A stretch of 64,000 bases of DNA. Source: an uncultured Acidobacteriota bacterium. Its GTDB lineage: Bacteria; Acidobacteriota; Terriglobia; UBA7540. Location: assembly GCA_963831905.1 (NCBI GenBank), contig CAWHRX010000002.1, forward strand, positions 140,150 to 204,149, read 5' to 3'. The notes beneath the pieces were generated by a model that saw nothing but the letters and a program-made list of their open reading frames with translations, had not been told where the DNA came from and made no database searches. Position 1 is the first letter of the stretch; every line of letters begins with the position of its first letter. Below, one piece after another: positions 23,077 to 38,559 of the stretch. The position numbers and the translations under genes were made by a program.

Positions 23077-26000
23077 ATGAGCGTGTTGGAGAGTTCGAGC
23101 ATCGGTCCGCATCGCCGTCCCTCAGCGCCTCCGGCCCCCGCCACTGTTCTGGTCATCGACGACGACGCCGCGGTTTGCCATACGCTCGGTAGCCTGCTGA
23201 CGGCGGAAGGTCATACGGTGGTCACCGCGCAAAGCGGTAAAGAGGCAGTGAAGCTGCTGCAAAGCCGGCAATTCGATGTGGTCCTTACCGATCTTCTCAT
23301 GCCGGAAATGGACGGCCTCGAAACGATGGAGGCGTTGAAGGAACTCGACCCTGACCTTGAGGTCATCGTTTTGACCGGGCATGTGGCCATCCGCGTTGCC
23401 ACAGAGGCGCTCAAGCGCGGGGCCTGCGATTATCTCCAAAAGCCGGTCAGCCTTCTGGAGTTGAGCGCCGCCGTGGAGCGTGCGGTTGAACTGCGCCGGC
23501 TCAAGTCCGGCAACTGCCTCGAGGGGGTGGCCGGCGTGCCGGGAGCTTTGGGCCGCCAAGATCTTGCCCTTTCGCAGTTGATCAAACGCCAGCACGCCGA
23601 AGAAGAGCTTCGGCTCACGCAATTCGCGGTCGATCACGCTTCCGACGCCGTGTTTTGGATGGACTGGCAAGGCCGGATCGTGTACGCCAACGAGGCAGCC
23701 TGCCGTTCCTTAAGCCGAACCCGCGAAGAAGTCCTGGCCCTGTCGATCCCCGACATCGATCCGCAGGTTGCCCAAACAGGATGGGAGAAAGCCTGGCAAC
23801 TCGTCAAAGAGCGCCGCTCGATGACGTTTGAGGCCCAGCACCGGCGGAAAGACGGAACGGTGTTTCCCGTCGAAGTGAGCGCCAAGTACCTGGAGTTTGG
23901 CGGGAAAGAATACAGCTTCACCTTCGTGCGCGACATCAGCGAACGTAAGCGGACGGAACTGGCGCTGCAAGCCTCCGAGCGCCGCTATCGGCGCTTTGTT
24001 GAACGCAGCGCTGCCGCCGTCATTCGCAACACTCTGGACGGCACCATTATTGACTGCAATCAAGTTGCGCTGCGCTTCCTGGGCTACGATTCTCTGGAGC
24101 AGTTGAAGACCCGCCGGATTCGGGACCTTTATTATGATCCCAAAGACCGGGACATCATGCTGGCCCGGCTCAGGAATGAGAAGATTCTCACCGGATACGA
24201 GTTCAGATTTCTGCGCAAAGACGGCGCCACCGCGTGGCTTCTCGCCAACATGACGTTAACCGAGGAAGACGGCCAGGAAATCATTGAGGGGACGGTAGTT
24301 GACATCAGCGATCGCAAGCGGGCCGAGGAGGAGTTGCGGCACCGCGAGGCCGAACTGAGGGACGCACTGGGGGCCGCGCAGATGGGCGTCTGGAACTGGA
24401 CGTTGGGCACGGATACCGTCACCTGGGATGAAGCTCTTTTTCGCATTGCCGGGCGGGATCCAAAACTTCCCGCCCCGAGTTTCACCGACCAGGCGGAGAT
24501 GTTTGCCCCGGAGAGTCTGCAGCGGTTGAAGGCGGCGGTGGAGAATACGCTCGCCACGGGCACTCCGTGCGAACTTGACGTTGAGATGGTCCTCCCCGAC
24601 GGCTCGAAGAAATGGGTCATAAGCCGCGGGGAACCCCGCCGCGATGCCAGTGGGCGCATCACCTGGCTTCGAGGCACACTGCAGGACATCACGGAGCGCA
24701 AGCGTTCTCAGGAAGTGAAAGCTCTGCTGGCCTCGATCGTCGAGTCTTCGGAGGACGCGATTATCGGCAAAGCTTTGGACGGAACCATTCTGAGTTGGAA
24801 CAAGGGGGCGGAAATTCTGTATGGCTATTCCGCCGGCGAGGTTATGGGCAGGCCGATTTCGATTCTCGCTCCGCCGGACCGCTACGATGAAATCCCCAAC
24901 ATCCTGGAGAGGATCAGGCGCGGGGAAAAGATCGCGCATTTCGAGACGGTGCGTCTGAGAAAGGACGGAGCCCGGGTCAACGTCGCCGTCACCGTGTCAC
25001 CGATTATGAACGCCAGTGGCGAAGTGACCGGCGCGGCCACGATCGCGCACGACATCAGCGAGCGCAAGCGAGTCGAAGAGCGTCTCCGCAAACTTTCGCG
25101 CGCCGTCGAGCAGAGCCCTGCCGCGGTGCTGATCACCGATATTCATGGAGCCATCGAGTACGTCAATCCCAAATTTACGCAAATCACCGGCTATACGGCG
25201 GCCGAGGTCAAGGGCCGAAACCCGCGCATTCTAAAGTCGGGAATGCAGTCTCCGAGCGTCTACGAAGAACTCTGGACGACGATTCTCTCCGGGGGGGAAT
25301 GGCGTGGGGAATTTGCCAACAGGAAGAAAAGCGGAGAGATCTATTGGGAGTCCGCTTCGATTGTCCCGATCCGAGGCTCGGCAGGAGCCATCACTCACTT
25401 CCTTGCGGTGAAGGAAGACATCACGGAGAGGAAGCGGGCGGAAGAGGAGCTGCACAGGGCTAAAGAAGCTGCGGAAGCTGCCAATCGCGCCAAGAGCCAG
25501 TTTCTGGCCAATATGAGTCATGAGATCCGAACCCCGATGAACGGTGTGATCGGGATGGCCGGTTTGCTGCTCGATACCGAACTGTCACTCGAGCAAAGAC
25601 GGTATGCAGAGATCGTCCGCTCCAGTGGCGAGGCGTTGCTGGCCGTCATCAACGACATCCTGGATTTCTCCAAAATCGAGGCGCGCAGGCTGAACCTGGA
25701 GTGCGCCGATTTCGATTTGCGCAGTGTGCTCGAGTACGCTGCGTCGTTGGTGGGGCTCAAGACGATTGAGAAGAAACTGGAATTACTCTTCGAAGTCGTG
25801 CCGGGGACTCCCTGCCTTCTGCGGGGCGATGCGGGCAGGCTGCGGCAGGTTCTGGTGAATCTGCTGGGCAATGCTGTGAAATTCACCCCCCAGGGCGAGG
25901 TTTCCGTCACGGTGCGAGTGGATACGGAGGATGAGCAAAAGGCGACCCTGCATTTCACGGTGCGCGATACGGGGATTGGGTTCCGCCAGGAGCAAGCCTC

Positions 26001-38196: not shown

Positions 38197-38559
38197 ATGA
38201 AACGAATCTTAGCCGTGGATGATTCCGCCAGCATCCGGCAGATGGTCGGCTTCACCCTGCGCCAAGCCGGGTACGACGTGGCCGGTGCGGTCGACGGTCA
38301 GGACGCCCTTGGCCAGGTCGGGAAAGAGAAGTTTGATCTGATCATTACCGATCTTAATATGCCCAATGTAGATGGCATTCAACTGATTACGGCCGTCCGT
38401 AAACTTCCGGGGTGCTCGTTTGTGCCTATCCTTATGTTGACCACAGAGTCGCAAGCGGAAAAAAAGGACGCAGGACGGAAGGCCGGCGCCACCGGATGGA
38501 TCGTGAAGCCGTTTAATGCCGATCAGTTGATTGCCGTGGTGAAGAAACTGGTGAAATAG
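38197..38559 (+). CDS. cheY: CheY-like response regulator
   Basis: ATG 38197 (MKRILAVDDS). It has ITDLNMPNVDG, LMLTTES and KP. Confidence 0.85.
   Translation: MKRILAVDDSASIRQMVGFTLRQAGYDVAGAVDGQDALGQVGKEKFDLIITDLNMPNVDGIQLITAVRKLPGCSFVPILMLTTESQAEKKDAGRKAGATGWIVKPFNADQLIAVVKKLVK

Follow-up and report, generated by a model that had tools for sequence, protein, structure and literature searches.

Which kind of chemosensory system is encoded by the eleven che-cluster genes of this stretch of acidobacterial DNA, and on what does it act? The stretch (64,000 nucleotides, nt; hereafter the window) was the subject of a sequence-only reading, made by a model without database searches, in which the cluster was taken for a cytoplasmic-array system, possibly non-flagellar, with features of Vibrio cholerae cluster I. 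Chemosensory systems beyond the models of Escherichia coli and Bacillus are poorly understood, class F8 is without a settled function, and the role of TlpC in the cytoplasmic array of Rhodobacter sphaeroides has been unclear since 2002. We report here that the cluster is real and complete, and probably a flagellar system of a type other than F9, the type of V. cholerae cluster I. Our preferred reading, to which we give a probability of about 0.7, is an F8-like system, a lineage-specific variant of a known minor class, composed of a core, a pair formed by CheY and a diverged receptor-like protein (protein X), and a movable kinase pair. The X family is the most interesting content of the cluster, which as a whole is otherwise probably an ordinary che operon within the flagellar regulon.

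Conserved anatomy of the locus

The cluster is chromosomal and comes from an uncultured Terriglobia (Acidobacteriota) bacterium of peat, wetland, and soil. All 80 of the 80 related loci in species-representative genomes are from Terriglobia metagenome-assembled genomes (MAGs), mostly of peat and soil; X homologues with a source name belong to Terriglobia, Terriglobales, and Candidatus Sulfotelmatobacter; the window DNA recurs almost whole in metagenomes from wetland, peat, and soil. For a synteny map, the window proteins were placed on 84 related loci, with denominators that vary with the sequence available.

Three blocks can be distinguished. The first is the seven-gene core, STAS-CheA-MCP-CheW-CheR-CheD-CheB (MCP, methyl-accepting chemotaxis protein), conserved in the relatives, with the STAS gene directly 5' of cheA in 49 of 62. 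The second is the X-CheY pair, which lies 3' of the core in 53 loci and 5' of it in 18; cheY directly follows X in 74 of 79 loci. The third, a PAS-rich hybrid histidine kinase with a single-domain receiver (RR1), is movable: it stands directly after cheY in 28 of the 50 loci with enough sequence to place it, at gaps of 6–10 nt, and upstream of STAS, not after cheY, in the window. The order cheY-like, STAS, cheA, named by the sequence-only reading as a feature of V. cholerae cluster I, is thus an accident of rearrangement, because the receiver before STAS travels with the kinase. RR1 is 28% and the terminal CheY of the window 54% identical to the CheY that precedes STAS in a Pseudomonas cluster with a receptor of class 34H.

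In loci L015 and L017, X is followed by the kinase with no che core. These loci were considered as an X-kinase unit and rejected as such; an IS1595 transposase gene lies 5' of X in L015, which suggests a product of rearrangement. On a contig of 5.05 Mb (L002), the same che genes are broken into many short open reading frames (ORFs), which resembles assembly frameshifts.

Chemosensory class

Aligned with E. coli Tar (class 36H) by BLASTP, the receptor shows exactly two symmetric deletions of seven residues, one per arm, and is of class 34H, a class assigned to F8 (PMC11253619, PMC7184735, PMC8429497). The order of the seven core genes is that of a plasmid cluster of Pseudomonas sp. HR96 (L095), with cheY displaced and X added; the HR96 cluster has no published F class and is called F8-type here from its 34H receptor and gene order. 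In rhizobia, the architecture STAS, CheY, CheA, CheW, MCPs, CheW, CheR, CheB is described as F8.

CheA, CheB, CheR, CheW, and MCP are all nearer to F8-type clusters than to those of the Vibrio cluster III type or of E. coli. Identities to F8-type clusters are 44–48% for CheA, 60–65% for CheB, and 37–46% for CheR overall, and highest for alphaproteobacterial plasmid and chromid clusters (CheA, 44–48%; CheB, 62–65%; CheR, 43–46%; MCP signalling domain, 50–54%). Against the Vibrio cluster III type and E. coli, the values are 37% for CheA, 43–54% for CheB, 35–37% for CheR, and 36–40% for the MCP signalling domain. CheY is 50–58% identical to the CheY proteins of both the F8-type and the Vibrio cluster III-type clusters.

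The hallmarks of F9 are DosM and a triple CheW, CheW3 (PMC9321776, PMC7534058). The sole CheW of the window has one CheW domain by Pfam, with orthologues of 170 amino acids (aa). A real CheW3 of 520 aa was recognised in the same way in an acidobacterial MAG (L020) with a textbook F9 cluster at 52–12153. There, a 543-aa DosM-like double MCPsignal protein (206 bits) and the triple CheW are accompanied by CheB, a protein of HEAT repeats, CheR, CheY, and a CheA that has three Hpt domains. An X-CheY pair, in which X appears frame-shifted, directly follows this cluster; since DosM and X co-occur there, X is not the DosM orthologue. With CheW3 absent, X distinct from the true DosM, and a core that matches F8-type clusters instead, the proposed likeness to V. 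cholerae cluster I is not upheld. A cytoplasmic array is likewise not implied by solubility alone, the V. cholerae F7 arrays of soluble Aer2 being described as long membrane arrays (PMC7534058).

Protein X

On profile evidence, X is a diverged tandem of two signalling domains (aa ~26–235 and ~349–545). The sequence-only reading had called it an MCP-tip-like protein: the MCP homology stands, with two signalling-domain regions in place of one, and the double-signalling-domain architecture that it had cited from cluster I appears to be present, both halves matching MCP domains. In Pfam, the MCPsignal match is 21.7 bits, below the cut-off of 34.6; a relaxed scan gives two regions of 22.8 and 10.5 bits. 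A profile of diverse X members, compared with PDB sequences, matched Thermotoga maritima TM14 over aa 26–235 (E 3e-13), and TM1143 (E 2.6e-15) and Tsr (E 3.6e-8) over aa 349–545. By hhalign, the halves match the window MCP at E 2e-5 and 8e-5 with tip motifs aligned; the match of the halves to each other was not significant. Neither a HAMP or sensor domain (Pfam) nor a methylation consensus was found in X, and both tips are degenerate, tip 2 reading RLGRRAA. Full-length X modelled with AlphaFold2 is all-helical (pLDDT 80.7, pTM 0.51), with breaks at about residues 62, 267, and 445 and not at the tip motifs; the N-terminal half alone was modelled poorly (pLDDT 56). Foldseek against the PDB gave generic coiled-coil matches, with MCPs at weak E-values among the 50 matches listed.

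The family comprises 3198 representatives at 50% clustering (E up to 1e-3), 935 of them below 1e-10; the weaker matches probably include ordinary MCPs. Close relatives are almost all 575–590 aa long. Alignments reach down to 15–25% overall identity and keep three signatures: a central block A.Q..D.TRQQ.EH, in which D241, T243, Q245, and H249 are invariant down to 15% identity; the Asn of tip 2; and a C-terminal module in which an invariant YT.E.ER helix leads through a variable linker to a terminal hydrophobic-Phe peptide. This peptide is GN.VELF in Terriglobia, the termini of about 80 related loci having been listed; in alphaproteobacterial homologues it is an acidic run with LF. The central block of the window, AIQAHDITRQQIEHV, aligns with LQIGDNTRQRVEHV of a Methylosinus homologue. 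Distant homologues of 574–582 aa end or adjoin alphaproteobacterial STAS-CheY-CheA-CheW-MCP-CheW-CheR-CheB clusters and retain D-x-T-R-Q-x-x-E-H, YT.E.ER, and LF.

No NCBIfam model covers the family. Alphaproteobacterial X-like proteins (L094, 5719–7443; L090, 11737–13467) carry inconsistent labels in public records, namely 'type VII secretion target', 'chemotaxis protein', or 'hypothetical protein'. In L090, a plasmid cluster of Agrobacterium leguminum, a ParA-family gene (13542–14243) lies between cheB and the divergent X-like gene; it recalls PpfA, which positions the cytoplasmic array of R. sphaeroides.

TlpC of R. sphaeroides is a soluble protein of 580 aa without HAMP, methylation sites, or glycine turn, encoded in CheOp2 with the genes of the membrane cluster and resident in the cytoplasmic array; its loss leads to a diffuse cytoplasmic cluster, and it binds CheW4 and CheA3 (PMC3964821, PMC6829392). 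X, too, is a soluble MCP-like protein of about 580 aa that has no HAMP, methylation sites, or canonical glycine hairpin, and its gene closes an F8-type che operon behind cheB in the window, in 53 related loci, and in Methylosinus and Sphingomonas clusters. In CheOp2, tlpC presumably follows cheB1. By analogy, the X family probably includes TlpC; two homologue searches from alphaproteobacterial members, aimed at TlpC, returned only Methylosinus relatives. That X is an array component we consider quite likely, and integration through its tips is suggested by their homology and by the TlpC precedent.

A bolder and doubtful proposal, drawn from the signatures, is that X and its relatives in Acidobacteriota and Alphaproteobacteria form an unrecognised class of array-resident CheY~P phosphatase. 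The duplicated signalling hairpin would plug into the CheA/CheW lattice and present a CheZ-like D-x-T-R-Q site and a tethered CheY-docking peptide. If so, X would supply a signal-termination step that F8-type and some F9 systems appear to lack, and its role would explain why the gene stays beside cheY through rearrangements. A precedent is CheT of Sinorhizobium meliloti, a D-X-X-X-Q phosphatase without sequence homology to CheZ (PMC12654446). X is not a member of the CheZ family: Pfam gave no CheZ match even at E 10, hhalign against E. coli CheZ found no similarity (E 0.5–0.7), and CheZ was absent among the 60 of 169 PDB sequence matches listed and among the 50 fold matches listed. The conserved residues of the central block lie on several helix faces, and a junction or binding site fits them equally well.

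Poly-HAMP receptor and adaptation proteins

The receptor opens with a Gly/Asn-rich stretch of 40 residues, followed by five 91-residue units (aa 41–495), a last HAMP domain, and the 34H signalling domain. Pfam gives one HAMP_2 match per unit; because of the unit length, each is taken to hold two HAMP domains. Units 2–4 are near-identical, which shows in the DNA as the 273-nt tandem repeat of Table 1. Orthologue lengths cluster at about 745, 838, 930, and 1035 aa, with one at 1200, in steps of ~92 aa, and the number of HAMP units therefore differs between species. No ligand-binding domain and no PAS domain were detectable in the window receptor by Pfam; in three orthologues (L027, L032, and L039), a PAS-like domain takes the place of the N-terminus described below. 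Among NCBIfam models, Aer2 matches best, at 372 bits against a cut-off of 1200; an Aer2-type receptor has a haem PAS between HAMPs and is of class 36H, and the window receptor differs on both counts.

The orthologues (L003–L081; window, 30546–30665) share an N-terminal peptide, M-[PA]-T-K-V-x-x-E-x-R-K, ahead of the Gly/Asn-rich stretch. It might be a docking site, by analogy with the TlpT N-terminus for the ParA-like PpfA. In L001 (18614–21770), a protein of more than 1800 aa, almost wholly made of HAMP/HAMP_2 repeats, is encoded ~2 kb 3' of the cluster.

Three methylation-consensus sites were found in the receptor, at aa 571, 719, and 746. Its C-terminus, DLDKEFERY, is conserved in the orthologues, and the pentapeptide EFERY fits an aromatic-x-x-aromatic tether for CheR and CheB. 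The beta-subdomain loop of CheR shows no 3-residue deletion relative to E. coli CheR and has the length of a pentapeptide-dependent enzyme. In the F8 cluster II of P. syringae, the 34H receptor PSPTO_0912 carries a pentapeptide, and the matching CheR is PSPTO_0910 (PMC11253619).

Promoter motif and the flagellar regulon

The sigma-28 consensus is TAAAGTTT-N11-GCCGATAA, with N12 as the alternative spacer. A FliA-type motif lies 5' of STAS, the first gene of the core, as in a late flagellar operon, and is the only site of at least 13/16 in 64 kb on both strands (shuffles, 0.05 per strand). With at least 12/16 positions matched, the motif recurs 5' of STAS in 32 of 65 relatives (1 in shuffles), and with at least 13/16 in 21 (0 in shuffles); it is kept whatever gene lies upstream. 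Upstream of X, MCP, CheB, CheY, the kinase, and CheR, there are 0–4 matches at 12/16 and none at 13/16. Sigma-54 motifs were searched before STAS and none was found.

We read the motif as a putative FliA-type promoter of the che core, which would probably place it in the flagellar regulon and weakens the earlier suggestion of a non-flagellar system. The kinase pair would therefore be transcribed separately in this genome, from its own promoter. The sequence-only reading had held that independent transcription of the kinase together with a lack of phosphotransfer would speak against its proposal; the first half is what the motif implies. Related acidobacterial genomes have a complete complement of flagellar genes, and their MCPs are mostly of soluble classes (PMC9448743). 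CheY retains the signature DLNMPNVDG and an intact active site; since the unit resembles a late flagellar operon, its most likely target is the flagellar motor.

STAS protein and hybrid kinase

The STAS protein (103 aa; Pfam STAS_2, 46 bits) is encoded 9 nt 5' of cheA and is thus, like CheS, a single-domain STAS protein beside the kinase gene. Over 50 aa, it shares 42% identity with the STAS protein of the Pseudomonas 34H cluster, and it conserves a Ser/Thr at the position of SpoIIAA S58, the residue phosphorylated in SpoIIAA. By Pfam, the cluster encodes no partner-switching kinase or PP2C phosphatase. The closest analogy is a CheS-like role on CheA: in PMC12654446, CheS is described, citing Dogra 2012, as binding CheA and sharpening its choice between two CheYs.

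In the hybrid kinase, Pfam places the first of three Response_reg domains at aa 24–133, HisKA at 805–869, HATPase at 917–1029, and Hpt at 1359–1433, with five PAS domains. Orthologous PAS-HisKA-HATPase-REC-REC-Hpt kinases follow cheY in relatives. RR1 always travels with the kinase and has the equivalents of D12, D13, D57, T87, and K109 intact. The proposed link of the kinase to the che system is borne out by this conserved neighbourhood; its repeated, often operonic recurrence supports a functional tie. A gene for a DUF4118-PAS-GAF-GGDEF diguanylate cyclase lies on the reverse strand (19005–20720), about 2.4 kb before the kinase gene.

Gene content and flanking sequence

All eleven genes lie on the forward strand where the sequence-only reading had placed them, in the order and with the domain make-up it had given (ORF listing and Pfam; Table 1). 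The tight spacing it described holds for some pairs: gaps from the kinase gene to cheY are 26, 215, 9, 178, 61, 37, -20, 166, 79, and ~100 nt, those between RR1 and STAS (215 nt), CheA and MCP (178 nt), and CheD and CheB (166 nt) being wide. The real starts of CheW, CheD, the receiver, and CheY are probably internal ATG codons.

Table 1 Coordinates of the features of the chemosensory cluster in the window. REC, receiver domain; TRF, Tandem Repeats Finder
Feature	Position	Strand	Basis and remarks
Hybrid histidine kinase, 1447 aa	23077..27420	+	Pfam: REC, 5 PAS, HisKA, HATPase, REC, REC, Hpt
RR1, single-domain receiver	27447..27842	+	Pfam Response_reg; ORF opens at GTG 27411, likely start ATG 27447
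Sigma-28 (FliA)-type promoter motif, TCAAGTTT-N12-TCCGATTA	27933..27960	+	~98 nt 5' of STAS start codon
STAS-only protein, 103 aa	28058..28369	+	Pfam STAS_2/STAS; candidate CheS-like CheA adaptor
CheA, 662 aa	28379..30367	+	Pfam Hpt, H-kinase_dim, HATPase_c, CheW domains
Soluble poly-HAMP chemoreceptor (MCP), 837 aa, 34H	30546..33059	+	Pfam: five HAMP_2 matches and MCPsignal
273-nt tandem repeat in receptor gene, 3.8 copies, 93% matches	30792..31832	+	TRF, direct repeats
CheW, one CheW domain	33121..33633	+	Pfam; ORF opens at 33004, likely start 33121
CheR methyltransferase	33671..34528	+	Pfam CheR_N and CheR
CheD deamidase	34509..35036 (ORF opens at 34482)	+	Pfam CheD, NCBIfam CheD; ~20 nt overlap with cheR
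CheB methylesterase, REC and CheB_methylest	35203..36270	+	Pfam
Protein X, 579 aa, putative diverged tandem of two MCP signalling domains	36350..38089	+	Profile and hhalign
X central block, aa 236–250, AIQAHDITRQQIEHV	37055..37099	+	Most conserved block in X alignments
X C-terminal module: YT.E.ER helix, variable linker, G-N-x-V-E-L-F end	37985..38086	+	Alignments
CheY, 120–124 aa	38197..38559 (ORF opens at 38185)	+	Pfam; likely pathway output

Both receptor-like proteins are soluble, as had been noted, with Kyte-Doolittle maxima (19-residue windows) of 1.37 for the MCP and 1.57 for X, and no product of the cluster has a hydrophobic stretch of transmembrane quality; the true transmembrane 34H receptor of the Pseudomonas cluster reaches 3.09. 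The reported lack of flagellar and pilus genes in the window is confirmed by Pfam, with no such family matched among the ~40 larger ORFs scanned, and tblastn with E. coli FlhB, MotA, MotB, and CheZ gave no match in the window or in the 84 loci. Flanking genes are housekeeping and metabolic: rimP-nusA-infB-truB, a GGDEF protein, an FAD oxidoreductase, a peroxiredoxin, ribonucleotide reductase, and others. No Rfam family and no tRNA was matched in scans of the window. A generic scan for sigma-70 promoters and terminators was uninformative, with 4 promoter-like sites where 3.3 are expected and terminator-like sites less frequent than in shuffled sequence.

Two further observations concern the window outside the cluster. 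At 21000–21420, an intergenic region, DNA metagenome depth is 676 against ~14 elsewhere and metatranscriptome depth 125 against ~1–3; a 28-nt direct repeat, GAGATTCTTCGCTGCGCTCAGAATGA, occurs at ~21328 and ~21389, with no Rfam or tRNA match. The region probably represents either a dispersed element present in many copies or a small RNA of high abundance. At 7214–7381, in the rimP-nusA gap, there are two tandem 84-nt copies, 82% identical, each internally palindromic (GAAAGTCGAAAGT...ACTTTCGACTTT).

Proposed mechanism and alternatives

The F8-like system might work as follows. The 34H receptor, with about ten concatenated HAMP units and no recognisable ligand-binding domain, would form arrays with CheW and CheA; the STAS protein may bind CheA in the manner of rhizobial CheS. 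CheA would phosphorylate CheY, which then most likely acts on the flagellar motor. CheR and CheB may dock on the EFERY pentapeptide and, together with CheD, adapt the receptor through its three consensus sites. X would enter the array by its two degenerate receptor tips, like TlpC in R. sphaeroides, and act on or recruit CheY via the invariant central block and the tethered C-terminal peptide. The PAS-rich kinase would signal through its Hpt domain to RR1, and may convey a cue of the redox, oxygen, or light type to the che pathway, read that pathway out, or run in parallel.

Several points weigh against this reading. The label F8-like rests on proxies, namely receptor class, gene order, and similarity. 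The presence of X differs from the Pseudomonas cluster, and CheD and the single CheW from alphaproteobacterial F8-type clusters, the single CheW being entered among the Pseudomonas differences as well. AlphaFold2 models of X show no clear hairpin turns at the tip motifs, and the likeness of X to TlpC, in size, position, and missing domains, is circumstantial, one of descriptions and not of sequences. The motif before STAS scores 13/16 against a general consensus, FliA promoters not having been mapped in this phylum, and is missing from the 18 loci in which the X-CheY pair comes first. In none of the loci examined is there a flagellar gene closer than 10 kb to the cluster; beyond the window, the comparison covered the 84 related loci. 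In the only metatranscriptome that holds the sequence, depth over the cluster is patchy (0.2–3.7) and no transcripts were definable.

A non-motility pathway, serving an alternative cellular function with its output through the kinase (Hpt and RR1) or through STAS as an anti-sigma antagonist and not the flagellar motor, would suit the lack of motility genes in the window and near the cluster in any relative. It would also suit the linkage of the kinase-receiver pair to the cluster in over half of the loci, the Ser/Thr kept at the phosphorylatable position of STAS, and the roles of the F8 and ancestral F7 systems known from Pseudomonas, Rhizobium, and Vibrio, which are unclear or lie outside chemotaxis (PMC11253619, PMC7617929, PMC7534058). 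We nevertheless regard it as unlikely: the sigma-28-type motif stands specifically before STAS in the window and in about half of the relatives, CheY is of the classical single-domain type and close to its counterparts in F8-type and Vibrio cluster III-type clusters, the cluster encodes neither a partner-switching kinase nor a PP2C phosphatase, and the kinase pair is not in the neighbourhood in 22 of 50 loci. Another alternative is that the cluster builds a cytoplasmic sandwich array of the F9 kind known from V. cholerae cluster I, with X as the equivalent of DosM, a rod with a signalling tip at each end that staples two CheA/CheW baseplates. The solubility of both receptor-like proteins and the X-CheY pair behind a true F9 cluster in one MAG can be cited for it, as can X itself, with two signalling-domain regions, no sensor, no methylation sites, and, by position, ~18 heptads per arm in each putative hairpin; 98% of surveyed DosM homologues have only two signalling domains (PMC9321776). 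We hold this array to be quite unlikely, given a lone single-domain CheW in place of CheW3, proteins that resemble those of F8-type clusters, tips at 22.8 and 10.5 bits, and the co-occurrence of X with a DosM of another family in L020 (hhalign, only E 3.6e-4). A receptor that varies in ~92-aa steps beside an X near 579 aa is, moreover, hard to fit to a fixed baseplate distance; because of this and of the co-occurrence, a DosM-like spacer role of X is disfavoured.

That X is what remains of a duplicated receptor and serves no specific role, with a resemblance to CheZ motifs that is due to chance, is highly improbable: the family has thousands of 50% clusters and a near-constant length among close relatives, residues are invariant at 15–25% overall identity across two phyla, and the adjacency to cheY survives rearrangement. 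These outweigh in our view the sub-threshold Pfam scores, the lack of detectable CheZ homology, and the shortness of a D-x-x-x-Q match noticed post hoc.

On the F8-like reading, abundant Terriglobia of peat and soil would carry a conserved system on a sensor-less, length-variable poly-HAMP receptor, with a PAS-rich phosphorelay repeatedly placed beside it. X represents a large unannotated family with sharp signatures that joins acidobacterial and alphaproteobacterial systems, and the choice between scaffold and phosphatase is testable.

Comparison with known systems

With F9 (V. cholerae cluster I), the cluster shares soluble receptors and, in X, a sensor-less protein with two regions of signalling-domain homology. 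It differs in that there is no CheW3, CheA has one Hpt domain as against three in the acidobacterial F9 CheA, and X belongs to a family of its own, found alongside a true DosM in L020.

The ancestral ('stage 1/2') F7 systems (V. cholerae cluster III, P. aeruginosa Che2, Aer2) likewise have a STAS anti-sigma antagonist, cheY, cheA, and cheW, together with a soluble HAMP-rich receptor, cheR, cheD, cheB, and a second odd receptor (PMC7184735); Vibrio Aer2 is the best NCBIfam match of the window receptor, and CheY is 58% identical. Unlike the window receptor (34H, no PAS), Aer2 is a 36H receptor with a haem-PAS. CheA, CheB, CheR, and CheW are only 28–43% identical to those of the Vibrio cluster III type; a second STAS protein and a Ser phosphatase are found there, neither of them in the window cluster, and McpA is membrane-bound and not X-like.

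Among single proteins, the STAS protein resembles, by domain and position, CheS of S. meliloti and Agrobacterium fabrum, a small STAS-only protein beside or near cheA in a che cluster, whereas the second receiver in the window, RR1, belongs to another kinase. X may be likened to CheZ in a D-x-x-x-Q on a long helix (D-I-T-R-Q; D-L-T-G-Q in E. coli CheZ), in a tethered C-terminal peptide that ends in a hydrophobic residue and Phe and recalls the CheY-binding tail, and in a gene that adjoins cheY; it is three times larger and built from receptor signalling domains.

In the alphaproteobacterial F8-type clusters (R. leguminosarum Che2 type), two CheW genes and several receptors occur, CheD is absent, and CheY adjoins STAS and not an X-like gene. 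As in the window, the STAS gene precedes the kinase gene, the receptors are 34H according to the literature, and a soluble, degenerate MCP-like protein of 574–582 aa ends the cluster after cheB or adjoins it.

The cluster of Pseudomonas sp. HR96 has the order MCP, CheY, STAS, CheA, MCP, CheW, CheR, CheD, CheB. Its receptor is transmembrane and bears its pentapeptide behind a long linker, whereas that of the window is soluble and poly-HAMP; its CheY stands before STAS and not behind X; X and the linked PAS hybrid kinase are found only on the side of the window. The two clusters have in common the core order, one CheW, CheD, and a receptor of class 34H that ends in a pentapeptide; protein identities are 33–60%, and the receptor signalling domains align gap-free at 53%.

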